Origin: a virus
Taxonomy: Duplodnaviria > Caudoviricetes
Strand: one strand, 5' to 3'
Virus record (IMG/VR): IMGVR_UViG_3300031740_000002
Span: 1 to 55,701 of that record
Length of the DNA: 55,701 nt
Position 1 is the stretch's first letter, and the number at the start of each line of letters is the position of its first letter. Under the pieces are notes generated by a model. It saw only the letters and a list, made by a program, of their open reading frames with translations. It did not search any database and had not been told where the DNA came from. Shown here piece after piece: positions 2,881 to 19,370 of this stretch. The translations under genes and the position numbers were made by a program.

Positions 2881-3117
2881 TTAGTCACGGGAAACCGGAT
2901 AACCGCCGCGGTTGACCCGAATAGCCGGGATGGCCCACGGCTCTTCCCAGACGTCGATTTCGCCAACGGCCATCATCTCGGCCAGCCAGTCGAGATCCTC
3001 AGCGGTCAGACCGGCGGGCCACACCTGCGGCATGACACCCGTCCTAATCGTGACGAAGTCCCAGGCCGCCGAGCTGGGCGCGCACCAACCACCGCTCGCA
3101 CTGATAACGCTGTCCAT
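2881..3117 (-). CDS. Small protein resembling the N-terminal segment of the mature major capsid protein
   Basis: ISASGGWCAPSSAAWDF and IPAIRVNRGGYPVS match capsid MVAAGGWCAPSQIRYDF and LPTFGVERGGINFPVS; promoter GTGACA-18-TATCGT-7-ATG. Confidence 0.7.
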   Translation of the reverse strand: MDSVISASGGWCAPSSAAWDFVTIRTGVMPQVWPAGLTAEDLDWLAEMMAVGEIDVWEEPWAIPAIRVNRGGYPVSRD

Positions 3118-3137
3118 GTCAGTCACGATAACGCGTC

Positions 3138-3158
3138 ACCACTTGACATGTCACTCAG
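3138..3158. promoter_or_regulatory. TGAC-N2-GTCA motif copy
   Basis: ACCACTTGACATGTCACTCAG; a weaker copy has its core at 2870-2879. Confidence 0.75.
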
Positions 3159-5794: not shown

Positions 5795-6727
5795 CTACGT
5801 TGCCGACAGAGGCGTACCGGTGATGTCGCCACCCAGGCTGATCGCTGCCGCAGGTGTGCAGCAGCACGAGTAGCCGAACAGCCAGGTCTGCTCAACCAGG
5901 GAACGCAGCGTGTTCGTTTCGCGGTCGAACATCTCGGAGAAGCGCCAGGTGTCCGGAGCGCCGCGGTAGCCGAAGATCGGCCCCGACATGTAGATCCAGG
6001 CGACGTTGGCTGTGAGCACGCCGGCCGGTGAGGTGCCTGGGTAGCCACCACCCAGCACGACCAGATTGCCCGACTGGGTCCTGAGTTGAGCGCCGTCGGT
6101 CTTCACCAGATTCCACTGCCACAGCGACGGGCCGAGCGAGGCCGGAACGTGCAGGATGCCCTGGCCGTTGGTCGGTGAGCAGGCCGCCCAGGCAGCCTCG
6201 ACGCGCTGCACGCCCTCGACGATGTCCAGCACCACCCCGGTTACCGGGGTGGCCGCACAGCCGAGCAGGCCCGGCGAGATGCCGGTGTCGACGGTGGCCG
6301 TGTTGTTGGCCAGATGCGGCCAGACCACGTTGGCATCCCCGCCGGCCGAGCCGGTCCAGAACGCCTGCTCAACCTGAAACGGCGTGACCCGCTGCAGGGC
6401 ATCGCGCGCCATGGACTGCCGCTCGGTCTCGCTGTAGCCGACCGGCGAGCAGTCCCACTGCGCGTAGACGGTGAACGCGGTGGCGGCAAACAGGGTCAGG
6501 TCGACGTTGCCGGCCTTGTCGGCAGGTGCGGGCGAGCCCTCGCAGTTGGCCTGGTAGAACGTCGCGATCGCGGCAGGATCGGCGCACCAGTCCTGCCAGG
6601 TGACACCGCCGCGCCAGTGCGGGTCGCCCGCTTCGTCGCGCATGTTAACCGCGGACAGCAGTCCGAAGTTGCGCGGCGTGTACGGAGGGGGCGCCACGAT
6701 CTGGCGCGGTCCGCCGATGGCTACCAT
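5795..6727 (-). CDS. Second capsid protein (pentamer-type/minor capsid)
   Basis: 310 aa directly after the major capsid; FGLLSAV, HWRGGV, VEQAFW, GGGY; arrangement as in actinophages with separate hexamer and pentamer proteins. Confidence 0.7.
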   Translation of the reverse strand: MVAIGGPRQIVAPPPYTPRNFGLLSAVNMRDEAGDPHWRGGVTWQDWCADPAAIATFYQANCEGSPAPADKAGNVDLTLFAATAFTVYAQWDCSPVGYSETERQSMARDALQRVTPFQVEQAFWTGSAGGDANVVWPHLANNTATVDTGISPGLLGCAATPVTGVVLDIVEGVQRVEAAWAACSPTNGQGILHVPASLGPSLWQWNLVKTDGAQLRTQSGNLVVLGGGYPGTSPAGVLTANVAWIYMSGPIFGYRGAPDTWRFSEMFDRETNTLRSLVEQTWLFGYSCCCTPAAAISLGGDITGTPLSAT

Positions 6728-6791: not shown

Positions 6792-8684
6792 TTACGGGCA
6801 GCAGGACGTCAGGTCGGCTGCGCCGGTGGTGCCGTCCGGGCAGACGTTCATCGTGTACTCGCGCACCTCGTGACCGAACCGGGCGATGAGGTGGCACTCC
6901 TCGAGCCACGCCGCGGTGAAGTCGTTGGTCTCATTCAGCGTCGAGTCACGCACCACGCCGAGGTTGAGCGCCATGCCGTTGCCGCGGGCCACGGTGCCGG
7001 CCGCGTACATGAGGCCCTTCAGAGTCGACGGATACTGGGTGATCGCGGTGGCCGCGCCGGGCTGGCCGGACGCGCGGACCTGATAATCCTGCACGAACTG
7101 CACGCGGATGCCGCGCACGTCGAACCAGCGCGCGATCTCCGAGTTCGGCACGGCCATGAAGTCGGACACGCCGGTGCGCTTGGCCAGGTCGGCACGGACC
7201 AGGCCGAGCGACCATTCCGGCAGCACCCACTCGATCACGTCCGTGTCGCACATGCCGAACTTGGCCCGGTAGTCGATCGCGGACAGCTCGGCGGTGTTGA
7301 GCACCGGAGCCGCCGCGCCGGTGCCGGTGGCCGAACATCCGGCGACCGCGGTGGACAGGTTGGCGATGCTCGCGATGTAGCGGGCGTTGCTGGCGTGGTA
7401 GTGCGCGGACATGAGCAGGCGCAGGAAGTTGCGGGTCGACTCGGGCCATGCGTTGTCGGCCAGGTTGCCAGCAGTCATGCAGATGCCGTAGCACTCCAGG
7501 CGCACGTCGCTCATGGTCGAGCAGGGCACCCGGATGCACGGCTTCGTCGGCGAACCGGTGGCGGCCAGGATGTCCGAATGCTCGGTCCACAGCCACGGCA
7601 CGGTGGCGTTGCTGAACGCCGTGTACCAGGGCAGTGCCGGACTGAACGTGTCGGCCAGGCTCGGGCTGACCGGGAAGTTGATGCCGCCGCGCTCCACGCC
7701 GAAGGTCGGCAGGTCGATCATGCCGCACTCGCCGGCGATGTTGAAGAAGTCGTAGCGGATCTGGCTCGGTGCACACCAGCCGCCCGCGGCCACCATCGTC
7801 TCGAAGGCGGAGCCGCTGGCCTTCGAGCGCAACCCCTCGATGTAGGCGTCCACCGCGTCACGCGGAGTCGTCTCATTGAAGCGGTTGGCGCCGAAGTCGT
7901 GCGCGATCGAGGCGACCTGCACGCCGCCGTAGGGCTTCTGGTGGTCGGCATCCCCGCGCAGGCGGTGGTAGGCCGCGGCACCGTCGCGGACCTGGCGACG
8001 ACTGAAGCCGTTCTGGTCGGCCATGTTGCGGGCGCGGTCCTCGACCAGATCGGTGAGCTGACGCATCTGGGAGATGCGGCCACCCATCTCGACCTGTCCG
8101 GGAAGGCCCACGCTTGCGGTCAGTGCGAGCGGCGCGGCGCCTGGATCGCTGGACAGCGCGGGCTGTGCGGTGCGCATGCTCGACAGCGACGGGTTGAGGC
8201 TGCGCCTGGGGCCGCCCACGCCGCCGGTGTCGCGCGAGCCGGTCTGGGCGCCGCCGGTCGGGCGCGCCGATGATGCGGCGATGGCCTGCGGTGTGGGCGC
8301 CGCCACGGCGGGCTGGGCAGGCTCGGCGCCGCCCGGCACAGCGTCAGCCGCGTTGCCGTCGTCGCCGGTCGTGTCGCCTTCGTCGCCTGGCTCGGTGGCC
8401 TCGGGCGGGCGCACGTCGTTGATGAGCGCCTCGAATTCGGCGTCCGTCTCGGCGATCTCGTCGGCGATCGCCTTCTCACGGCCCTTGATCGCCTTGATGG
8501 CCTTCCCGAGCCGCTGCGCCTCGGGCAGGTTCTCCGGCGTGCGGTTCTCCAGAACCACGTCCAGTTCGGCGTCGGCCTGGGTCCGCAGCTCGGCCAGCTG
8601 TTCGACGGTCAGACTCGTCAGATCAGCGGGAAGTTGGAAGGGGGCGCCCGCGTCGCCAGCGCCGCCCGTGGTGGTCTTCGGCAT
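6792..8684 (-). CDS. Major capsid (hexamer) protein with N-terminal scaffold-like region
   Basis: Acidic coiled-coil N-terminus, then AAGGWCAPS..YDF, KPCIRVPC, AGNL..WPE and RDSTLN..ND motifs; start reassigned to MPKTT. Confidence 0.9.
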   Translation of the reverse strand: MPKTTTGGAGDAGAPFQLPADLTSLTVEQLAELRTQADAELDVVLENRTPENLPEAQRLGKAIKAIKGREKAIADEIAETDAEFEALINDVRPPEATEPGDEGDTTGDDGNAADAVPGGAEPAQPAVAAPTPQAIAASSARPTGGAQTGSRDTGGVGGPRRSLNPSLSSMRTAQPALSSDPGAAPLALTASVGLPGQVEMGGRISQMRQLTDLVEDRARNMADQNGFSRRQVRDGAAAYHRLRGDADHQKPYGGVQVASIAHDFGANRFNETTPRDAVDAYIEGLRSKASGSAFETMVAAGGWCAPSQIRYDFFNIAGECGMIDLPTFGVERGGINFPVSPSLADTFSPALPWYTAFSNATVPWLWTEHSDILAATGSPTKPCIRVPCSTMSDVRLECYGICMTAGNLADNAWPESTRNFLRLLMSAHYHASNARYIASIANLSTAVAGCSATGTGAAAPVLNTAELSAIDYRAKFGMCDTDVIEWVLPEWSLGLVRADLAKRTGVSDFMAVPNSEIARWFDVRGIRVQFVQDYQVRASGQPGAATAITQYPSTLKGLMYAAGTVARGNGMALNLGVVRDSTLNETNDFTAAWLEECHLIARFGHEVREYTMNVCPDGTTGAADLTSCCP

Positions 8685-8901: not shown

Positions 8902-9030
8902 CTACTGGGCTGCGCCGGAGTCTTCGGTACCGGTGGTTTCCGGTGGCGGCACGCTCGGATCACGGTGCGGCTCGTGACGCTGCCCGCACTGCTGGCACAT
9001 CGGCCATACGACGTCCTGAGCCTCAGCCAT
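8902..9030 (-). CDS. Micro-protein with CxxC, ending SGAAQ (42 aa)
   Basis: ATG overlaps protease end; C-terminus resembles 8798-8887; translated by hand. Confidence 0.6.
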   Translation of the reverse strand: MAEAQDVVWPMCQQCGQRHEPHRDPSVPPPETTGTEDSGAAQ

Positions 9031-10963
9031 CGCGGCCTGCCGCCACCAGCACCTCGGCCCAGCGCACCTGCTGGGTACGCCCGGCAGCGTCGGCGATCAT
9101 GTCGAACAGATCGTCATAATCGGGCTCGGCGACGGGCTCGGGCTCCAGGAACACGATAGGCACCGATGATGCCACGATGGCATCCTCACGCACGCGCACG
9201 CTGGAGCGCACCGGAGTCGGGAAGCCCTCGGACGGCACAAGCAGGGCCGCCTTCAGCTTGCCGCCCTGCCAGTCGCCGGACAGCGCGCAGGCCATCATCC
9301 GCTCCACCGCGTCCGAGCTGATGCCGTGCAGCAGGCCGCCCGCGACCCAGGTGCCGAACTGGTTTTCACCGACGCGCACCCTGGCCGCGATGGAGCACGA
9401 GTTGTCGTAGTGCTGCACCGCCCAGGACGGATCGGCGCGGCGCGGATCGACCGGCGAGGCGTGCCCGCAGTCGAAGGTGATGTTGCCGGCGTTGATCCGG
9501 TACACGCCGCCGTCGGCGCCGGCGACCAGGCACGCCTTGTTCTGGAACTCGGAGTAGTCGATATTGCGCGGCGCGGTGGGCGCACGCAGCTGACTGCGGA
9601 AGGCCCGATGCGTCACGCCGGCCGGCGCGAGCAACCCATAGACGCGTCCATCGGCGGTGATGTTGAGCGCGCCGATCGGCGGCAGTTCGGTCGGCTCGTT
9701 GAACCAGGACTCGGGCCACACCTCGGGAATGGTGATGGTGTAGCCGGCCGCTACGACCGCAGCTGTCGGCTCCTCATCGCCACCGAGCGGGGGCGGCTCC
9801 AGGCCTGCGTCGCGCAGGTGTCCGGCGAGATGTTCGTAGACGCCGGACGCGTCGCCGGCCGGGATGGTGGTTCCGCCGCGGCCACCGTTGAGCACGCCGA
9901 TGCCGGACTGGCACGCCTTGATGTTGGCAGCGCCGGGCGTGCCATCCTCGCCGACCTCATGGTGTCCGAAGCGTCCGCCCGACTTGGGGATCTGGCCGTC
10001 GACCACCTGGGCGTCGTCGATCCAGGCGTAGAAGGCGCGGGCGGTGGCGACCGGCATGGGTGATGCGAGGCGCTTCTCCGCGGCCGGGCCGTCCCACGCT
10101 GTGTCCGTGGTGGGTGTGTCATGCGGACCGACCGCCGCGGCGACCATGCCCAGATCGATCGGCGGCGCGGCGGTGATGGGCGGCATGAACGGCGACTCGC
10201 CCAGGCAGGCGGTGGCCTCGACGAAGGCCGGCTCTGGCAGCAAGGTCAGCGAGCGCACCCGCCCACTGTGATAGACGATCTCGATGGGCTCTGCCATGTC
10301 CATGCTGGCGTCAGCCACCATGACAGAGTTACGCCGCTCGTATGGGCGTCGCCGCGCAGTGCCGGGCGGGCGGCTGCGGTCGTAGGTCGGGCCGCCACGC
10401 TTGCCGTGATCCTTCTGGTTGTGCTTGCCGGCCAGGTGGAAGTCTTCATCGTCGACCGACCCGTCGGGTCCTGCTTCGATGATCTCGTCGCCGAGCAGTT
10501 CCGGCTCTGCATAGATCAGTTCGATGTCGGTCTGGTCCATGTCGTCGGCGAGGATCGAATTGCCGCGCAGGAAGTTGCCGGCCATGAGCCGCTGCGCCTC
10601 GGCGCCGGCGGCGCCTGCGGAGTCCATGGTGCCGACCCAGCGGATCAGCGCGCCGTCGCGCCACATGGCGTCCACGCTACCGACGATGACCGCGCCGGCG
10701 TGACCCTCGGCCTCGGCGGGCTGCCACTTGAGCGCGAACGGAGTGGGTGCGAACTTCAGCGCGCCGACCTCCCAGCGCCGCCGCGGCATGCTGCCGTCCG
10801 TCACGCCCTCGATGCAGGCCACGCCGTAGCAGGGGGCGCCGGCACCGTCGGGCACGAGCACGGCAGCCATGACGCCGTCGGCGTCGTACTCGTCGTCACC
10901 GGTCAGTGCGAACTCGTCTTCGAGCACCTGCGGGTCGTCACTGGGTGGCGTTGTCGGCTGCAC
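9023..10963 (-). CDS. Capsid maturation protease, multidomain
   Basis: GTG after GGGGGTG; GHAGAVIVGSVD, LTLLPEPAF and ALSGDW motifs; upstream of capsid. Confidence 0.75.
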   Translation of the reverse strand: MQPTTPPSDDPQVLEDEFALTGDDEYDADGVMAAVLVPDGAGAPCYGVACIEGVTDGSMPRRRWEVGALKFAPTPFALKWQPAEAEGHAGAVIVGSVDAMWRDGALIRWVGTMDSAGAAGAEAQRLMAGNFLRGNSILADDMDQTDIELIYAEPELLGDEIIEAGPDGSVDDEDFHLAGKHNQKDHGKRGGPTYDRSRPPGTARRRPYERRNSVMVADASMDMAEPIEIVYHSGRVRSLTLLPEPAFVEATACLGESPFMPPITAAPPIDLGMVAAAVGPHDTPTTDTAWDGPAAEKRLASPMPVATARAFYAWIDDAQVVDGQIPKSGGRFGHHEVGEDGTPGAANIKACQSGIGVLNGGRGGTTIPAGDASGVYEHLAGHLRDAGLEPPPLGGDEEPTAAVVAAGYTITIPEVWPESWFNEPTELPPIGALNITADGRVYGLLAPAGVTHRAFRSQLRAPTAPRNIDYSEFQNKACLVAGADGGVYRINAGNITFDCGHASPVDPRRADPSWAVQHYDNSCSIAARVRVGENQFGTWVAGGLLHGISSDAVERMMACALSGDWQGGKLKAALLVPSEGFPTPVRSSVRVREDAIVASSVPIVFLEPEPVAEPDYDDLFDMIADAAGRTQQVRWAEVLVAAGRDG

Positions 10964-11005
10964 ATGATCACCCCCGTCAGGCCAGATCATACGCCGCCGG
11001 GTACG

Positions 11006-11045
11006 CGACAGCCGAGACCGTGAGTGGAAACAGTCTCGGCTGTCG
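11006..11045. terminator. 13-bp perfect inverted repeat
   Basis: CGACAGCCGAGAC-N14-GTCTCGGCTGTCG between 2H gene and protease; no U-tract. Confidence 0.45.
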
Positions 11046-11082
11046 ACGGTGGCCGATCCGGGCGCGGATGGACCGGCACAGT

Positions 11083-11853
11083 CTAGCGCGGCTCGCCGGC
11101 CATGCGCATTATGCAGATCTCGCCGGGCAGGTGCGCCTCCGGCGAACCGCATCTGATGCAGCCGTCTGACGGCTCGCGCAGGTCGTACTCAAAAAGGGTC
11201 GGCGACGGGGCGCAGAAGCCGCCCGCCGCGGTAGCGACGTCATCCACCGGCAACTCGTCAAGCTCTGGCGTTGCCCCTGCGTCCGACTCGGGCTCTGCAT
11301 CCGGCTCCGGCGCGGTATCGGACTGGACCGGCATGCCCAGCGGGATATCGGTGACTTCGCCAGCAAAGGCGAAGCGGAGCCGGTCGAAACGCACCGGCCC
11401 GACGCGCTGCGCCACGCTGGCGAACTGTTCGGGGACAGCCACGGACGCCTCGGCCTGGCCGACGTAGGCGAGCGTGATGTGCGGGATGAAGGGCTCGTGT
11501 TGCTCAGGCCACGCCACCAGATCAGCGCAGCCGGCCTGGACGTCGGCATGCACCTCGGCGATCTCCGGACTGTTCAGGATCAACGCCACACACGGCTCGT
11601 CACCGACCGGGTTGACCAGCGCCGCGGCGAAGGCTTCGCCCTCGACAGCCTCCCACGCTGCGGCGTACTCACGCCCCCAGGCGACCAGTGCGGCCCGTTC
11701 GTCCGACTCGATAGCCTCGCCGTCGCCGAGGTACAGCAGCGTCAGGTGCAGATCGCCGACAAGTTCGGCGCCTTCGTCGCCCAGCGCCAGGAAGTCGGCA
11801 GAGTCGGAGTCAGGGAGCAGTGCGATCATCGCTCCGGTGTGTTCGTCGGCCAT
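11083..11853 (-). CDS. 2H phosphoesterase (2'-5' RNA ligase-like)
   Basis: Two HxT motifs (LHLTL, PHITL); acidic linker, then GGFCAPS and CxxC at the C-terminus. Confidence 0.85.
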   Translation of the reverse strand: MADEHTGAMIALLPDSDSADFLALGDEGAELVGDLHLTLLYLGDGEAIESDERAALVAWGREYAAAWEAVEGEAFAAALVNPVGDEPCVALILNSPEIAEVHADVQAGCADLVAWPEQHEPFIPHITLAYVGQAEASVAVPEQFASVAQRVGPVRFDRLRFAFAGEVTDIPLGMPVQSDTAPEPDAEPESDAGATPELDELPVDDVATAAGGFCAPSPTLFEYDLREPSDGCIRCGSPEAHLPGEICIMRMAGEPR

Positions 11854-12083
11854 CAACCGCTCCGGATCTTCGTCACGTCTGCCTGATATGCCTTACGGCG
11901 CAGATGTGCAGCCAGATGGCGACGCGCCATCTTCTCGGCACGCCTGCGCCCACCGAGTACGAATCGAGAATCGTATTCAAACATGCCCTCATGCACAGTA
12001 AGCAGATAGGACCAGCGCCCGGTGCGCGCAACCGTGACGTATGGGTCAAGGTACCCGTCGTCGGCCATGAAAGCGTCAGTCAC
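11853..12083 (-). CDS. Hypothetical protein
   Basis: Start and stop overlap both neighbours. Confidence 0.55.
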   Translation of the reverse strand: MTDAFMADDGYLDPYVTVARTGRWSYLLTVHEGMFEYDSRFVLGGRRRAEKMARRHLAAHLRRKAYQADVTKIRSG

Positions 12084-12303
12084 CCTCTATCACGACCCCC
12101 TCGATCACGTCAGAAGCGGCAGCCTCGATCTCGGCCTGCGCTGCGTTCTCAACTGCCTGACCGGATGGCGCGAGCAGGTACATGAACGCTGAGGCCACCA
12201 TGGCGTCGCGCGACGGCGCCGGGCCGGTCAGCCTGCCGGCCCACTGCGCCCGAGGGTCGTCCGACGTGCCGTCGAACATATTGATGCTGACCTGCTCAGC
12301 CAT
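12076..12303 (-). CDS. Hypothetical acidic protein
   Basis: Coupled to neighbours; contains MVAS motif. Confidence 0.55.
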   Translation of the reverse strand: MAEQVSINMFDGTSDDPRAQWAGRLTGPAPSRDAMVASAFMYLLAPSGQAVENAAQAEIEAAASDVIEGVVIEGD

Positions 12304-12601
12304 CTGCGCGCACCTTCGCCTCCGGCGCCATCGCGTACTCAGGGAATTGTGCCCCGTCGTAGCGCGGTGTCCAGGTCAGACCGTTGTCCGTCGTAGAGCC
12401 GTCCGGAGCGGTGTAGGGCTGACGGTGATCGTAGCGGTTGTGCCAGATCTCGGCCGGAATGCCGAGCGGGAAGGCCTCACAGCTCGGACCCCTCATACCG
12501 ACCGCCTGCGCCGCCGAGGACAGGAACGAGCGGTAGCGCCCGCAGGACGGGGCGCACTGCGACTGCGCTCCGTCACTGATCGGCTCGGCTACCTGCGTCA
12601 T
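12296..12601 (-). CDS. Small CxAFPxGIP-motif protein
   Basis: CEAFPLGIPAEIW..DHRQPY..DNGL; I recall this motif next to MuF/peptidase head proteins. Confidence 0.7.
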   Translation of the reverse strand: MTQVAEPISDGAQSQCAPSCGRYRSFLSSAAQAVGMRGPSCEAFPLGIPAEIWHNRYDHRQPYTAPDGSTTDNGLTWTPRYDGAQFPEYAMAPEAKVRADG

Positions 12602-12628: not shown

Positions 12629-12805
12629 CTACGTGCGCCCACGGTTTTCGAGATCTTCCAGCAGATCGCGAGGGCCAGCCGGCAGATCGTCTGCATCGCG
12701 CACCGATCTGGGGAGGGCTGCCCGCAGTAGCTGCTCACGCTCATCGGGCGTAGCCGCACCGGCCATACAGGCGCGACCGAGACGCCTGGACAGGTCAGGC
12801 GTCAT
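12629..12805 (-). CDS. 58-aa protein, candidate immunity for the MuF C-terminal domain
   Basis: MTPDLSRRLGRA...; ATG overlaps the end of the MuF gene; translated by hand. Confidence 0.6.
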   Translation of the reverse strand: MTPDLSRRLGRACMAGAATPDEREQLLRAALPRSVRDADDLPAGPRDLLEDLENRGRT

Positions 12806-15800
12806 AGCGTCGGCTCGCCTTCTCGAATATCAGCACACTGCGGTTAAAAATGATGTATTGCGGCGGTTCGTCGTTATTGTGCACACCCGGCGGGTATTCT
12901 GCGCCATCGTTGTGCATCGGCCCGTGAATCCTGATCCCATCGTAGCCGCGCATGGCGGCATAGAAGCTGCTGTCATATAGGGAGCGCCCATATGCCGTAT
13001 TCCTAATGCCGGTACTTCCCAGGCCGCTGAATCCAAGCGACCTCAGAAATTCGACGTGCTCAGCCTTAAGATCCTCGTAGTCGACGATCCTCGCCCTCGG
13101 GTCCAGGGCCATGCGCATCAAGCCGCCACGACCATGATCCTGCACGTCGAATCCAGGCAGCCATTCATAATTAGGAGCCGACCCCCACGGTTCGCCTTTG
13201 AAGAAGTTCGTCGACGCGAAATCACTGTCACGGTAAATCTCGGCAGTAGTCCGGCGAACGGTGGTATATACGCCATTGCCGTAGATCCCCGTGGTCATGT
13301 CCCAGTCACCGGTTCGCGTAGCCTCGGCGATCTTGCGAGCGGAGATCTGGGGAACCGAACCGGACCACTGCTGAACGCCACGCCACATCTCGGTCCAACC
13401 GGCGCGGATCGCCTTGTCAAGCTCAACCTTCGTCACGACCCGCCCGGGGGTCGACCAGCCCGGCTGCTGCCTCACCATCTCGGTCAGTACACGATCCTGT
13501 GGATCGTTGATGCTCTGAGCCAATTCGGCGCGCCGAATCCATGGCGCATCATCCTTCGTCTGTTTGGTCAGATCTGTACCCGAACTCCGCACACTGGGTG
13601 GCCCGACATCCACCCGCGTGACGCGGGCCTTGATCAGCGGGATGACCTCGCCGTCCGGCATCTGCACCGTCGCGCCACGCGTGACGATCTGCACTTGCGC
13701 CCCGGCAGGAATGTCGATGTCGCCAAAGCCTTCCATCGTGTCCGGATCAAACTTGACCTTCGCGCCGGCCTTCCCGATCGGCTTGATGCCCGCTTTCGTG
13801 CTGGCGCGCGTGATCGCGCTGCGCAGCTTCGCCGCGTCCCCGGTCGCGAACGCCTTCGCCAGGATGTCCACCACGGACTCGTCGACACCGGCGTAGAACT
13901 CGCCGGACCGGCGCAGGGCGGGCGAGAACACCTGACTGATGGTCTGACGGGTGGCGCCCTTGGCGATGATCTCGTCGAGCTCGGCGATCAGCCTGGCGTT
14001 GGCCGCAGCCGTCTCGATCTGGCGGTTGCGCTCGCGCTGAGCGGTGCGGCTCAAGCGCCTGCGGTAGTCGGTGGCCTCATCGGATGTAAGCGACTCGACC
14101 ACGTTCTTACTGATCAAGCGCGGCTGGCCACCCACGATCGTCTCGTAGCCGGGGCGCACCACGCGCACGAGCTGACCGGACGCCAGACGCTCGCCGGCGA
14201 TACCCTGCGCCAGTTTCGAGTCGTAGCCGGCCACATCGCCGGCCGTACCGAGCTCGCGCAACCCGGCAGCCTTCGCACGCTTACCCAGCGCCTCGCCGAG
14301 CTTGCCCGGACCGCCGGTGCGGATGGCCCGGATCAGCGCATCGCGCTGGGCGTTGGTCACATCGTAGCGGGCAGCGTTGGACCGGATCACCGCAGCGATG
14401 GCGTCGCGGTCGCCCTCGGTGTCGACCACGGCCTGGATGACGCGCGCGTTGAAGTCTGCGATCTTGCGTCGCTCGTCGATGATCGCCTGGTCTATGCGGC
14501 CCTCGATCAGGTCGACGTCAGCGCCGGGCGAGTCGCCGATCAAGCGTACGAGATCATTCTTCGTGGCGCGTGGCGGCACCTCGATGCCACGCTGACGCGC
14601 GATGGTGCGCAACTCTGCGACAGGACGAGCAGCCAGCGCGCCAATCGGATTGGCCCGCGCCGGCGAGACAGTGCTGGTCGGCGTGAGCCGCAGCCTGAAC
14701 CCGGCAGCGCGGTATTCGGCCTCGAGCAGATCGTAGATCTCGTGCGAGATCGCCGAGGCGCGGTCGCCGCGCAGCATCACATCGGCGAAGGCCTCGGCTA
14801 CGAGCTCATGCGCGTCCGAGCCGGCGTAGGTGCTGATGTCACGCGCCACCAGCGTATCGGCGTCGATGCCCTCCAAGGTGGCGCGCCGGTTGACCGCGGT
14901 CAGCGCCCGCGATTCGATGCGCGCACCCAGGTTGTCGATGTCGAGGATGTGGCCGAACTCGTGCAACCCGACGGCCATCGGCTGCCCGCCCTCGCGGGTG
15001 AACCAGCCGGAGCGGCCCTGCTCCCAACCCTTGTTATCCGAGCGCAGCCGGCGCAGCAGCGCACCGCGCTGGTCCTGGGTAGCCCAGGACGCGTTGAAGC
15101 GGATAGCCAGGCCGCCCGCGTTGGCGTAGTCACCGCCGGGTACGCGGAACCAGCCGATCTCGTAGACGCGCACCTCGGGGAAGCGCTCGAAACCGCGCAG
15201 TACGCCCTCGGCGTACTCGCGCCAGGTGACCAGCGAGCCGTCATCGGGGATCACCACCATGACGTCGCGGCCGGTGATGCGCCGGTACTCCTGGCGCACC
15301 GCGGCCTGCAGACCCTTGGTCGTCTTGGCGCGCAGCAGCACGGCGCGGATCGGATTGGCCACCCGCGCGCCGCGGGCCAACAGCGACAGGTCAGGGCTGG
15401 GCTCGGCCAGCGGGTCAGGGCCTGGGGCAGCGGCGGAGCGGCCGGGCACGGTTGGTGGTGCGCCGAAGCGGCCGGTGTTGGGTCGCAGTACTTCGCCAGG
15501 GACGCCAGGACCGATATCGCGCGCCTGCCCCTGGGCGCGGTCTATCTCGTCGTCGTCGATGACGTAGCCGATGGTGCAGCGGCACCGGTAGCGCTCGGAC
15601 GGTGGAAGACTGGAGTCGCCGGGCACGTCGGCCGAATAGCCGCCGACGGTGAATTGATCGACAAGATCGACGCGCTGGCCATCCGCCGCGAGGTGGGTCG
15701 GGCGCGTCCGCGGATCCATGGTGGCGATCCACTCTTTGAGCATGGACAGCCCGGACGCCCGCGCGGTCTGGATCGAGCCGACGTTGGATGCCTCGATGAC

Positions 15801-16388
15801 CTGGGTGCGGGCCAGCAGCACGGCGGATTTCGCCGTCATGTCGGCGGAGTCGCGCAGGCGCTGGGTCAACTGCGGCACCGACTCGCCACGCTCGAAGCCG
15901 TCGAGCAGTTCGTTACGTGCCGTCTCCCAGAGGTCGTTGCCCACCTCGACGAAGGTGTTGCGGGCCTGAGCCATGAACTGCTCGGCCGCGATACTGCCGA
16001 CGCTGGGCAGCCCGGTCACGCCGGTGGCCGTGATCATCTGCGAGTAGGTGGTGCCGGTCGAGTCGCCCCAGACCTGGGCCACCACGGGCATCAGCTGCGT
16101 ATCGACGGCGCCGGTCCACAGCGGCGTAATACCGGCCAGGTCGTCGGGTGAGACGAACGGCTGACCGGGCATGAGGCCGTCCCCGCCCGGTACCGATGAG
16201 GCGGGCGGCTGCTCGGCCGCCACCATGGCCATGGCCGGCTCTGGCGCGAACGCTGCGGCCGGCGCCGCTTCCTCGATGCGGCGCGCGATGATGTCCATGA
16301 CGTGGTTCAGGGCGGCGCGCATGGCGGCCTCGGCCTGCTCCTCGTAGGTCGTCAGCGCCGCGTCGCTCAGACCGGTGATGCGCCGCAC
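12795..16388 (-). CDS. MuF-like head morphogenesis protein fused to zincin, HeH-like, two GrpE-like and ADP-ribosyltransferase-like domains
   Basis: ARTQV, KEWIATMDPRTRPTH, CRC (MuF); HEFGH...ELVAEAF; two FDP/RPGY-type repeats; WRG..YGNGVY..GYDGI..YIIFN; follows portal. Confidence 0.85.
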   Translation of the reverse strand: MRRITGLSDAALTTYEEQAEAAMRAALNHVMDIIARRIEEAAPAAAFAPEPAMAMVAAEQPPASSVPGGDGLMPGQPFVSPDDLAGITPLWTGAVDTQLMPVVAQVWGDSTGTTYSQMITATGVTGLPSVGSIAAEQFMAQARNTFVEVGNDLWETARNELLDGFERGESVPQLTQRLRDSADMTAKSAVLLARTQVIEASNVGSIQTARASGLSMLKEWIATMDPRTRPTHLAADGQRVDLVDQFTVGGYSADVPGDSSLPPSERYRCRCTIGYVIDDDEIDRAQGQARDIGPGVPGEVLRPNTGRFGAPPTVPGRSAAAPGPDPLAEPSPDLSLLARGARVANPIRAVLLRAKTTKGLQAAVRQEYRRITGRDVMVVIPDDGSLVTWREYAEGVLRGFERFPEVRVYEIGWFRVPGGDYANAGGLAIRFNASWATQDQRGALLRRLRSDNKGWEQGRSGWFTREGGQPMAVGLHEFGHILDIDNLGARIESRALTAVNRRATLEGIDADTLVARDISTYAGSDAHELVAEAFADVMLRGDRASAISHEIYDLLEAEYRAAGFRLRLTPTSTVSPARANPIGALAARPVAELRTIARQRGIEVPPRATKNDLVRLIGDSPGADVDLIEGRIDQAIIDERRKIADFNARVIQAVVDTEGDRDAIAAVIRSNAARYDVTNAQRDALIRAIRTGGPGKLGEALGKRAKAAGLRELGTAGDVAGYDSKLAQGIAGERLASGQLVRVVRPGYETIVGGQPRLISKNVVESLTSDEATDYRRRLSRTAQRERNRQIETAAANARLIAELDEIIAKGATRQTISQVFSPALRRSGEFYAGVDESVVDILAKAFATGDAAKLRSAITRASTKAGIKPIGKAGAKVKFDPDTMEGFGDIDIPAGAQVQIVTRGATVQMPDGEVIPLIKARVTRVDVGPPSVRSSGTDLTKQTKDDAPWIRRAELAQSINDPQDRVLTEMVRQQPGWSTPGRVVTKVELDKAIRAGWTEMWRGVQQWSGSVPQISARKIAEATRTGDWDMTTGIYGNGVYTTVRRTTAEIYRDSDFASTNFFKGEPWGSAPNYEWLPGFDVQDHGRGGLMRMALDPRARIVDYEDLKAEHVEFLRSLGFSGLGSTGIRNTAYGRSLYDSSFYAAMRGYDGIRIHGPMHNDGAEYPPGVHNNDEPPQYIIFNRSVLIFEKASRRYDA

Positions 16389-16394
16389 GGGCGG

Positions 16395-17975
16395 CTACCG
16401 GTGCGTCGAACCGTTGACGTGCCCGTTGCCGACACGGCTGAGCGCACGTCCCAGCGCCCCGGCCGATGCGACCAGTGCGGGCGGCGCAGGCCGCGGCGGC
16501 GTACCGCCCGGCTGTGGCGGTGGTTCGGCGCGGGTGTCCGGCATGGTGCGTGGGCTACCGACGGAGGGTGCCGGAGCGTCCGGTGCCACGGTCGGACCGG
16601 CACCCTCCGTCGGAGTCATGGCGGGCTGCCCGGTCAGCTCGGAGATCGCAGCAGGGATGAGCTCGGCAACGCCCTTGACGATGATCCGCTTGTTGGCCCA
16701 GGTCTCGATCTCGTCGGGATCGGTGAGCGCGTCGGACTCGTCGAAGCCGGCCTCGCGACGGTAGGCGGTTTCGTTGATCACGCCGTCGGCGTACATGGCG
16801 CCGGCGCGCTCGGCCATGTCCGGCTTCGCGCTCAACTCGGTGGTGTCGTACCAGGCGATCAGTCGACCGCCCTGCGCGCCGACCAGCGGTAGGCCTTCCT
16901 GGCGCAGGGCACGCACGAGGTAGGCCTTTGTGACCGCGCCGCAGATGACCTCGGCGAGCGGCGCGAAGCACAGCCGGATCTCCTCCTCGGAGATCTGCCA
17001 GGCGTTCCAGTGATTCTGCTCGCCCATGCCGCCAGTGACCCGGTTGCGGTCGATGCCCAGCGTGTCGCCCAGGCGCCCCAACTCGTCGAGACGCTCTTTG
17101 AGCAGCCACTCGTCCAGCGGGTCGTCGGGCTTGAGCAGCTTCCACTTCTCGATCAGCTTCTCGGTGAAGCGGATCGGGATGGGGAAGCCGGCGCTGGCCA
17201 GGCCGGGGTTCTTGATGTTGCGTGACCCGATGTCCATGAGCATCGCGATGAACGGGTCCGGCGCCTGCTTGTACTGGTCGGGCACGCCGATGGTGCCCTC
17301 TGCGGGGATGAGCAGAAAGCCGTTCATGACCAGGCGGCTGACCATCATGGCCACGATGCGCGAGTCGATCAGGAAGATACGGCGCATGATCGGGATGGCG
17401 GCCTGCGCGTTACTGGTGGCAAGCCACGGCCATTGCGGGTCGGGCTGATAGATGCGGATAGGCAGGTTGTCCGGAGCCAGGTCGCGCCAGGTCGCCTCAC
17501 CGACGCGCACCTTGTACGTGTAGCCGACCGGCCAGATGCAGTTGGTCGAGTAGACGCCCCAGTCGGCCTGAGAGAGCGGAATGCGCGGGTCGTCGCGTTC
17601 GGCGATCAGCCAGCCGTCGCCGGGGATGGTGAGCTGCGGCGTGATGGCGCGAAGAAACGCGGAGTGTCCGGGCGGCCCACCGCAGAACTCCTGCATCAGC
17701 TCGGCTGCCGGACCGTCGGTGAGCATCTCAGGCTCGTCGGCGCCGGGCACCACCTCGGCCGCGCCGAGCCTGATCCGCGACATGGCGCGAGCCTGCCAGT
17801 CGGTGGCCTCGAAGAACTCGCCGAGCGTGCGCCGGAAGGCCCAAGCCTCATCCTGCCAGGGCTGGTAGCCGAAGATCTGGGCGTTCTGGAACTGCTGCGG
17901 CGTGTAGGTGGCGCTGGCCGCTACGAGCGGTCGCTGTGCCACGGCCAACGAACGGGACGGCAGGCTGTCCGGCAT
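16395..17975 (-). CDS. Portal protein
   Basis: About 526 aa between terminase and MuF; WQDEAW and NHWNAWQI motifs. Confidence 0.85.
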   Translation of the reverse strand: MPDSLPSRSLAVAQRPLVAASATYTPQQFQNAQIFGYQPWQDEAWAFRRTLGEFFEATDWQARAMSRIRLGAAEVVPGADEPEMLTDGPAAELMQEFCGGPPGHSAFLRAITPQLTIPGDGWLIAERDDPRIPLSQADWGVYSTNCIWPVGYTYKVRVGEATWRDLAPDNLPIRIYQPDPQWPWLATSNAQAAIPIMRRIFLIDSRIVAMMVSRLVMNGFLLIPAEGTIGVPDQYKQAPDPFIAMLMDIGSRNIKNPGLASAGFPIPIRFTEKLIEKWKLLKPDDPLDEWLLKERLDELGRLGDTLGIDRNRVTGGMGEQNHWNAWQISEEEIRLCFAPLAEVICGAVTKAYLVRALRQEGLPLVGAQGGRLIAWYDTTELSAKPDMAERAGAMYADGVINETAYRREAGFDESDALTDPDEIETWANKRIIVKGVAELIPAAISELTGQPAMTPTEGAGPTVAPDAPAPSVGSPRTMPDTRAEPPPQPGGTPPRPAPPALVASAGALGRALSRVGNGHVNGSTHR

Positions 17976-18038
17976 GCTCACCCCCGTGATCGGCCGTTGT
18001 CGCCATGGTAGACCGTGATCGACCAAAGGGGCAGACAG

Positions 18039-18082
18039 GCAGAGCGCCGCGCCTCCGGGGAAGGTCAGGCGCGACGCTCTGC
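18039..18082. terminator. Intergenic hairpin upstream of portal
   Basis: GCAGAGCG-C-CGCGCCT...AGGCGCG-A-CGCTCTGC. Confidence 0.45.
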
Positions 18083-18149
18083 GTTGTGGGCGCTGCGGTC
18101 TTGCAGGGGGTCGTGTGCGCGCGCCCAGGGGAAATCCTTACGATCCCGG

Positions 18150-19346: not shown

Positions 19347-19370
19347 GACCTAGTGACACGTCAAGTGGTA
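19347..19370. promoter_or_regulatory. TGAC-N2-GTCA motif copy
   Basis: GACCTAGTGACACGTCAAGTGGTA between divergent genes. Confidence 0.8.

Follow-up and report, generated by a model that had tools for sequence, protein, structure and literature searches.

Fusions of 2H phosphoesterase domains to MuF or portal proteins of the phage head, among the so-called polyvalent proteins, were described by Iyer et al. in 2017 (PMC5512222) and in a further paper of 2022 (PMC9503650). Both papers propose that the enzyme is packaged in the head, injected, and acts on RNA ends, 2′-5′ oligoadenylate or cyclic (oligo)nucleotide signals. Here we describe a 2H phosphoesterase gene carried by an almost complete phage record (IMG/VR IMGVR_UViG_3300031740_000002). 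The whole stretch analysed, referred to below as the window, is 55,701 bases long with 68% G+C, and high-GC bacteria are the hosts of the phage. The window enzyme resembles the fusions in superfamily, in head-module context and in proposed logic. It differs in being a separate protein, and in having a tail that copies the junction between the scaffold domain and the N-arm of the phage's own major capsid protein (MCP). The gene and its parts are as follows.

11083-11856, minus strand: 2H phosphoesterase gene (open reading frame (ORF) and Pfam)
11332-11856, minus strand: 2H (LigT-type) catalytic domain, residues 1-175 (Pfam, AlphaFold2 (AF2) model and Foldseek)
11236-11331, minus strand: acidic, Pro-rich disordered linker, residues 176-207 (AF2 per-residue confidence, pLDDT, falling from 71 to 48; no predicted secondary structure)
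11179-11235, minus strand: copy of the MCP scaffold/N-arm junction motif, residues 208-226 (PHROG, hidden Markov model (HMM) and tblastn)
11113-11160, minus strand: C-x2-C-x5-H-x5-C knuckle, C233-C248 (C233, C236, H242 and C248)

The ORF encodes 257 aa from a TTG; the gene call of the collection begins one codon later, at an ATG, and gives 256 aa. Both HxT motifs reported in the initial annotation are present (H36-L-T38 and H125-I-T127), and H36, T38 and H125 are invariant across 58 homologues. The protein scores above the cut-offs of two Pfam families, LigT_PEase (32.8 bits against 23.3) and 2_5_RNA_ligase2 (31.1 bits against 27), and its gene lies within the head operon. In the AF2 model pLDDT is about 97 over residues 1-175, and the chain is disordered from about residue 180 to the end. 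Foldseek returned 53 matches in the PDB at E ≤ 0.001, with 1vdx, 1jh6, 5v1m and 5ldm at the top; the leading matches are LigT/ThpR-like enzymes, plant CPDase, Usb1 and a Burkholderia phage phosphodiesterase (E 3e-7 to 3e-6). We found no literature on the phage BCSR5 phosphodiesterase 9q2g. Judged by sequence families and the predicted fold, the protein is an apparently intact member of the LigT/ThpR branch of the 2H superfamily. The acidic linker and the following CxxC noted initially were also recovered, the latter as part of the larger C233-x2-C236-x5-H242-x5-C248 pattern.

Between the acidic linker and the knuckle, the 2H protein reads A-T-A-A-G-G-F-C-A-P-S-P-T-L-F-E-Y-D-L. The MCP counterpart, at 7746-7796, is M-V-A-A-G-G-W-C-A-P-S-Q-I-R-Y-D-F. 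The initial annotation had placed the MCP copy exactly and had made the 2H copy one residue too long (11179-11238 for 11179-11235). A pairwise BLASTP comparison gave E 0.012 for the single pair, a value that would fail correction for all protein pairs in the window. When the 60-aa tail was compared with 38,880 PHROG families, the sole match was phrog_777, the family of the phage's own MCP, at profile positions 259-273 (E 0.0076). The 2H tail scored 15.7 bits with an HMM built from 36 distinct junction segments of MCPs, and the best reversed decoy among 11,977 six-frame ORFs 7.8 bits. A degenerate scan of metagenome DNA for AGGFCAP found at least 119 loci, 107 of them in frame and almost all unrelated; two are MCPs with F for W. 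Among these 107 sequences only the two real MCPs reach 14-15 bits, the best unrelated one scoring 12.2. On the combined evidence of the PHROG scan, the HMM set against decoys and the AGGFCAP comparison, all of them tests of sequence, the match to the capsid is judged not to be chance, and the claim that the tail matches the capsid stands. With the tail as query, tblastn matched 127 phage records; nearly all of the 60 matches listed fell on the MCP junction, in proteins annotated as major capsid hexamer or major head protein. The 2H-tail and MCP copies encode Ser with different codon families (TCG versus AGC), and several of their third positions are not the same, so the motif in the 2H tail is not a recent duplication of MCP DNA; these differences argue that the peptide has been maintained rather than recently copied.

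In an alignment of 35 MCPs the junction is the most invariant block. Residues A299, G301, G302, W303, C304, P306, Y311, D324, P326 and R332-G334, counted from the start at 8684, do not vary. The AF2 model of the MCP has an N-terminal scaffold (delta) domain of roughly 290 residues. The motif lies in a low-confidence linker with the delta-domain helices on one side and the HK97-like body, from about residue 325, on the other. This position identifies it as the scaffold/N-arm junction, where such proteins are trimmed in maturation. MCPs of the phrog_777 type were found in 878 sequenced phage records, cluster-B mycobacteriophages included.

Reuse of the motif outside capsid proteins, as the initial annotation had proposed, was found in several phages, at MuF/protease junctions, in a fusion to a RusA-like protein and in small proteins. 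Six MuF-protease head fusions were examined, from five cluster-B mycobacteriophages and Gordonia phage Clawz. In four of them (Rosebush gp13, Athena gp13, Oline gp9 and Saguaro gp12) the domain boundary reads [TV]-A-A-(S)-G-G-W-x-A-P-S-E-x-x-Y, which mirrors the L-[VTI]-A-A-G-G-W-C-A-P-S-E-Q-L-Y of the same phages' own MCPs. The fusions of Vincenzo and Clawz have a shortened T-A-S-A-A-P form (TAS-AAPSE) at the boundary. In the boundary copies the Cys is replaced, while the A, GG, W, P and aromatic residue are kept. The cluster-B fusion loci are L196 (Rosebush, 10766-10993), L197, L198 and L199. By tblastn, the MuF/protease junction region is found in 527 phage records. These boundary copies provide the strongest support for a putative extended maturation site common to the MCP and other head proteins.

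The 2H domain itself also occurs within head polyproteins. With this domain as query, tblastn matched 407 phage records, and the 40 matches listed were annotated as capsid maturation protease/MuF-like fusion, head maturation protease, portal, RNA ligase or hypothetical protein. The profile of phrog_18402 (‘head maturation protease’) is matched by two window proteins, at positions 399-590 by the 2H protein and at 20-179 by the protease next to it. Maih gp11 has the order MuF-2H-protease, its 2H domain being 35.8% identical over 98% of the query, and P0159 has the order Cys-domain, 2H, knuckle-like stretch, protease, with a protease part very close to that of the window. Given these polyproteins, the free-standing enzyme of the window, with its site and knuckle, looks like a separately encoded polyprotein module.

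A shorter core of the motif recurs in tails of the 2H family. Alignment A1 comprises 20 of the 58 homologues, picked for coverage; T-V-A-[AS] followed by the knuckle is present in 12 of the 20 tails, and the knuckle pattern DGC.RC.GP.H.G.C is likewise kept in 12. The core was then surveyed in 62 distinct 2H-bearing ORFs, taken from 83 loci plus the window. The pattern [LIVM][TV]A[AS] was found no more than 80 aa after the 2H domain in 16 of the 52 distinct ORFs with enough tail, and ahead of the first HxT, at a distance of 20-70 aa, in 24 of 57 2H-bearing ORFs. As background, 8.7% of random 80-aa windows and 4.0% of shuffled tails contain it. In the window the pattern occurs ten times in the portal, MuF, protease and MCP (3,150 aa), as against five times in the 12,344 aa of the 51 remaining listed frames. 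The protease polyprotein accounts for five of the ten sites, located at what look like domain boundaries and at its extreme C-terminus.

From the identity of the domains, the match of the motif and its recurrence at domain boundaries, we infer how cleavage, packaging, ejection and substrate might be arranged. The reading that we favour, with about even confidence, is that the 2H enzyme is loaded into the head and bears in its tail an extended site for the maturation protease, which either survives from a junction in a head polyprotein or imitates one. The tail would keep a polyprotein-type junction, x-T/V-A | A/S-G-G-W/F-x-A-P-S...aromatic, followed by the small zinc knuckle, and it is at this extended junction that the phage's own prohead protease would recognize and cut the protein. 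The 2H enzyme would enter the procapsid with the core of protease, scaffold and MuF, perhaps by way of the knuckle or of the junction itself, and its tail would be clipped at the A|A bond in maturation. It would then leave the capsid together with the DNA, and in the host might act on RNA 2′,3′-cyclic or 2′-5′ ends, or on nucleotide second messengers. Of the two functions that the initial annotation offered for the tag, head targeting or processing, the latter fits the comparative data well.

Several results weigh against a maturation site. G-G-[WF]-C-A-P is found in only 2 of the 58 homologues, the window protein and P0033, and the extension is thus dispensable for the 2H family; contrary to the expectation that GG[WF]CAPS would be kept as a tag, whose lack of conservation in homologues the initial annotation had itself named as refuting its idea, only the shorter [LIVM][TV]A[AS] recurs. 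Even this core is present in no more than 31-42% of 2H ORFs at the stringency of the regular expression used, and in the window 2H tail its P3 residue is Ala instead of the usual hydrophobic residue. The motif spans 13-15 residues, longer than most protease sites need, and the small N-arm-mimic proteins described below keep a further MCP element, the ‘RGG’ hairpin, which a cleavage site does not explain. Protein and metagenome searches found no close relative of the window 2H tail: when 5.8 billion proteins were searched with nothing but the tail region, the query itself was the only match among 26 candidates, a metagenome scan for close relatives of the 2H protein gave 596 pattern matches of which none was confirmed, and the matches listed from the AGGFCAP scan include no relative of the tail. 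The published record is also unhelpful to this reading as far as the accessible text reaches. In the actinophage capsid preprint, cleavage sites of such capsid proteins are said not to be predictable; neither there nor in the Rosebush capsid paper and its supplement is a cleavage site given for the phrog_777 MCP family; and in the virion mass spectrometry of Rosebush the gp13 MuF-protease fusion is represented by 2-3 spectra, with no termini (PMC7150772 supplement). A predicted complex of the S78-like protease domain (alignment A4) with residues 190-257 of the 2H tail scored 0.06, against a mark of 0.32, and weighs neither way.

The alternative that survives best, though we consider it unlikely, is that the tail mimics the N-arm as an address or anchor, docking on the scaffold/delta domain or on neighbouring MCPs independently of cleavage. 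It draws its support from longer copies of the N-arm in non-capsid proteins, one of which is encoded in the window.

2881-3126, minus strand: small conserved protein, 81 aa from a GTG or 78 aa from the ATG at 3117 (HMM 23.6 bits; phrog_777 positions 258-278, E 9.9e-5)

This protein has I-S-A-S-G-G-W-C-A-P-S at its start and an MCP-like V-x-R-G-G at its end, and by sequence is a probable mimic of the MCP N-arm. A homologue of 76 residues in the related phage G006 starts M-T-I-T-A-A-G-G-W-C-A-P-S (BLASTP E 2e-16). It came from the search of phage records; the search of 5.8 billion proteins with the 81-aa ORF returned only the window's own 50-aa gene call. The G006 homologue shows that the long form is a real conserved gene, despite the 50-residue gene call. 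The initial annotation had counted three copies in the window, the third in a mini-capsid. The pentamer protein at 5795-6727, possibly the one meant, starts MVAIGG; this N-terminus does not score above 5 bits with the HMM and was rejected as a junction copy. A third copy does exist, and the ORF at 2881-3126 is the better candidate for it.

Copies running from the N-arm to the RGG element were also found in a 114-aa ORF of G001 (phrog_777 positions 252-300, E 5.9e-5) and a 160-aa ORF of G017 (phrog_777 E 6.1e-9). In its variable stretch the G001 copy follows the MCP of its own phage (ITARRGGLTFT and VTARRGGISYT). The G017 protein (L328, 3083-3565, minus strand) has a Cys-rich N-terminus, an N-arm-like middle with Val for Cys and a very basic tail, and small Zn-finger-like genes surround its gene. 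In a 320-aa frame (L157, 1809-2768, plus strand; the same as L324), an N-arm-like segment, with a Met directly before AAGGWCAP, is joined to a RusA-like Holliday-junction resolvase. Its scores are E 9.7e-6 for phrog_34 and E 0.0017 for phrog_777 (positions 251-334); a Pfam scan gave no RusA match, and the RusA-like call is by PHROG only. A shorter, junction-only copy is present in a 155-aa ORF of G004 (E 0.039). A complete phrog_777 MCP is encoded as well in G001, in G004 and in G017. L157 lies in G002, a 37% fragment in which only the mimic was found. Among 20 further 2H-bearing records an MCP is present in 19, two of which have an extra junction copy. A pattern scan for the W variant found at least 112 loci, of which about 95 are MCPs, 10 are off-frame chance matches, 4 have no in-frame match and 3 are plausible non-capsid copies, two of them confirmed. 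A 150-aa ORF (L127, VINAGGWCAPI) was confirmed neither by PHROG nor by record search and was left out.

Unlike the MuF-junction copies, the long non-capsid copies mostly retain the invariant Cys. A cleavage site alone does not explain these longer copies, and the idea of addressing therefore stays alive. On the other side, the 2H tail corresponds to the first 15-20 residues only, without the RGG element: the phrog_777 match extends up to positions 300-334 in L149, L157 and G017, whereas it covers only 259-273 in the 2H tail and 258-278 in ORF 2881-3126. The motif also falls in a low-confidence AF2 segment, which gives no basis for naming a docking site. Several genes for mimics are found away from head modules, next to an Xis-like helix-turn-helix gene or among small Zn-finger genes of apparent early regions, which makes a decoy or regulatory role as likely. 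The separate promoter-like site of ORF 2881-3126 fits such a role as well as it fits cargo. This site, GTGACA-18 nt-TATCGT, is sigma-70-like, overlaps the upstream copy of a repeated element and ends 7-8 bases before the ATG at 3117; it suggests that the ORF is a leaderless, separately transcribed, moron-like gene in the tail/connector block. The repeated element is the partly palindromic GTGACA[T/C]GTCAAG, found on both sides of the ORF (2868-2880 and 3142-3154) and at 19353, 20992, 23571, 27202, 30568 and 33762. It has 12 matches in the genome at two or fewer mismatches, against 2.25 expected.

A neutral recombination scar is a doubtful explanation. On this view the 2H gene would have acquired a short piece of an MCP gene at its 3′ end, through illegitimate recombination at shared TVAA-coding microhomology for instance, and the piece would persist because the disordered tail tolerates it. 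Compared with its closest homologues, the window 2H tail does have about 15 extra residues, inserted precisely where ‘TAA’ would meet the knuckle. The rarity of the extension in the family (2/58), the mosaic nature of phage genomes and the modest pairwise E-value (0.012) would also fit a scar. Against this, the positions invariant in MCPs (A, GG, the aromatic residue, C, P and the aromatic residue at P+5) are kept although codon usage differs, and P0033, an independent 2H protein 39% identical to that of the window (alignment A3), has the motif at a different position in its tail. The motif is moreover conserved at the MuF/protease junction across four cluster-B subgroups, which indicates that it is selected outside MCPs.

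The remaining alternative places the enzyme in the cytoplasm, and is best judged from its genomic setting. The head module is encoded on the minus strand in the order portal, MuF, Cys-rich protein, two small ORFs, 2H, protease, MCP and pentamer protein; the genes other than 2H are as follows.

16398-18137, minus strand: portal protein (phrog_776 E 5.9e-89)
12795-16388, minus strand: MuF-like head protein, 1197 aa (Pfam Phage_Mu_F E 7.4e-18; several MuF-containing PHROGs)
12296-12601, minus strand: Cys-rich protein, 101 aa (without Pfam or PHROG family)
12076-12303, minus strand: small ORF between the Cys-rich and 2H genes (without Pfam or PHROG match)
11853-12083, minus strand: small ORF between the Cys-rich and 2H genes (without Pfam or PHROG match)
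9023-10990, minus strand: capsid maturation protease polyprotein (phrog_859, phrog_18402 and phrog_21470)
6792-8684, minus strand: major capsid (hexamer) protein, MCP (phrog_777 E 1e-118; N-terminal scaffold/delta domain of about 300 aa)
5795-6727, minus strand: probable major capsid pentamer protein, 310 aa (phrog_779 E 2.6e-47)

The name ‘pentamer’ is given by synteny, after the gene that follows the MCP in Rosebush, Athena, Vincenzo and Clawz and is annotated there as major capsid pentamer protein. The protease polyprotein probably starts at a Met at about 10990 and not at 11152. It contains an S78-like domain, with the invariant Ser in GVSID, and a C-terminal protease-like domain (alignment A4, 23 sequences). 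From the Cys-rich gene to the 2H gene each ORF overlaps the next by 4-8 bases, a sequence pattern as in a translationally coupled operon. The two small ORFs (11853-12083 and 12076-12303) encode 76 and 75 aa and overlap; in many relatives the Cys-rich and 2H genes that flank them are fused.

The family of the Cys-rich protein comprises 127 representative clusters, most of which are stand-alone proteins 60-140 aa long. For this reason the idea that the window ORF is a split-off piece of the 2H gene was rejected. The same domain is found N-terminal to 2H in P0066, P0159 and many relatives (alignment A1), N-terminal to an ADP-ribosyltransferase exoenzyme domain (P0104) and a zeta-toxin domain (P0124), and C-terminal in a MuF protein (P0097). 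These architectures have the pattern of an adaptor domain for putative head-delivered effectors.

A cytoplasmic enzyme, not carried in the virion, would heal 2′,3′-cyclic ends of tRNA or RNA or degrade defence signals late in infection, with the tail serving as a nucleic-acid-binding zinc knuckle or allowing regulated degradation by the prohead protease. Most 2H enzymes, the Foldseek neighbours among them, are soluble RNA-end- or nucleotide-processing enzymes, the 2H gene is free-standing here and the Cys-rich domain that partners it usually stands alone as a small protein, but we think this role improbable in view of the strong fusion-fission linkage of 2H to MuF, portal and protease domains, the translationally coupled place of the gene inside the head operon, and the consideration that a counter-defence enzyme made late would come too late to protect the infecting genome.

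Some further features of the module were noted. About 900 residues of the MuF protein after its MuF domain, from 12795 to about 15500, have no family match (the final 501 residues were scanned separately), and this extension could be another delivered effector. An ‘FHL.G.HNQ.DH’ element occurs at about residues 250-262 of the protease ORF (9023-11152, minus strand) and in L014, L037, L005 and L007; in several phages it recurs in linkers after the 2H domain or within the protease insertion. Two cysteines are invariant across the 35 MCPs, C304 in the N-arm motif and C388 in the body, and both the MCP and the pentamer protein terminate in Cys-rich tails. A disulfide or metal site formed in the shell by these cysteines is possible. 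The best tblastn match of the window MCP N-arm segment was the MCP of Pseudanabaena phage Pam4 (47.5% identity over 97% of the query). As Pam4 is a cyanophage, the capsid family extends beyond actinobacterial phages.

A broader and speculative scheme, to which we would assign a low probability, combines addressing with trimming. The junction, sometimes extended to the RGG hairpin, would be a portable module with two effects on unrelated proteins, sending them to the head as it assembles and tagging them to be trimmed, and with the Cys-rich domain it would form a two-part cargo-loading code for actinophage capsids. Candidate carriers are the 2H phosphoesterase, the RusA-like resolvase, the protease itself and the small stand-alone proteins, and the invariant Cys may link cargo to the shell through the other invariant Cys of the MCP. 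An undescribed cargo-addressing system, as the initial annotation put it, is possible; overall, its observation is confirmed and its interpretation is partly supported.

If the junction is the recognition and cleavage signal of the prohead protease, it would allow for the first time the point of trimming of these capsid proteins to be read from their sequence, and the same rule would tell which other proteins are processed in the head. The 2017 prediction of injected 2H enzymes that blunt RNA-targeting or nucleotide-signalling defences would then be directly testable in cultivable phages. Should the motif also address cargo, it could serve as an easy handle with which to load proteins into the heads of mycobacteriophages. 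Were it no more than a scar, the window enzyme would just add another member to the known class of head-associated 2H enzymes.

Compared with known enzymes, the window 2H protein has its best Pfam families and best structural neighbours in the LigT/ThpR family (1vdx, 5ldm, 1iuh, 2d4g). Identity is 12-19% in the Foldseek alignments listed, and the window adds the head operon, the junction motif and the knuckle. A link to the anti-CBASS nuclease Acb1, suggested at first, proved weak. Acb1 (7t26/7t27) and the window protein are both phage-encoded and share the 2H fold and two HxT motifs. However, there is no sequence match between them, a PDB sequence search with the 2H protein gave no match at E ≤ 1 (one with the MCP gave none either), and Acb1 (7t26) ranks only 48th by Foldseek, at E 2.1e-4 as against about 1e-7 for LigT/ThpR, plant CPDase and Usb1. 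The window protein is therefore a generic LigT-type 2H enzyme with no specific tie to Acb1 or CBASS. To our knowledge, Acb1 is not known as a head-module protein.

The window protease has an S78-like core, as in the assemblin/HK97-type (S78) proteases. Herpesvirus assemblin cleaves at the consensus (V/L/I)-x-A|S. The proposed core, hydrophobic-x-Ala | Ser/Ala, would resemble this consensus by analogy, whereas the P′ side in the window (GGW.APS...aromatic) is far more conserved. In T4 (IPI-III, Alt) and phiKZ, cargo proteins carry a terminal propeptide, N-terminal in T4, that the prohead protease removes by cutting at a short consensus also present in the MCP. Only if the tail is indeed a maturation site would the window enzyme be like such cargo, and then by analogy, with unrelated proteins and a different protease consensus. 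The same holds for SPN3US, as far as the accessible text describes it (PMC10052503): it would work alike on that reading, and again its proteins are unrelated and its protease consensus is different.

Among the nearest known systems are Maih and the cluster-B fusions, which share with the window a homologous protease (and, in Maih, a homologous 2H domain) and the MCP family, hexamers and pentamers being made of separate proteins. The cluster-B fusions examined share the junction motif, between MuF and protease, but are without a 2H domain; Maih gp11 has the 2H domain but is without the GGW motif; and in the window the polyprotein is split into separate genes. The strings GGWCAPS, GGWCAP, AGGWCAPSE and GGWCSPS were not found in the open-access full texts searched. 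The initial annotation had proposed a virion-loaded 2H enzyme. Such enzymes were already predicted in 2017 and 2022 (PMC5512222, PMC9503650), and what appears to be undescribed is the shared junction motif together with its spread to non-capsid proteins.

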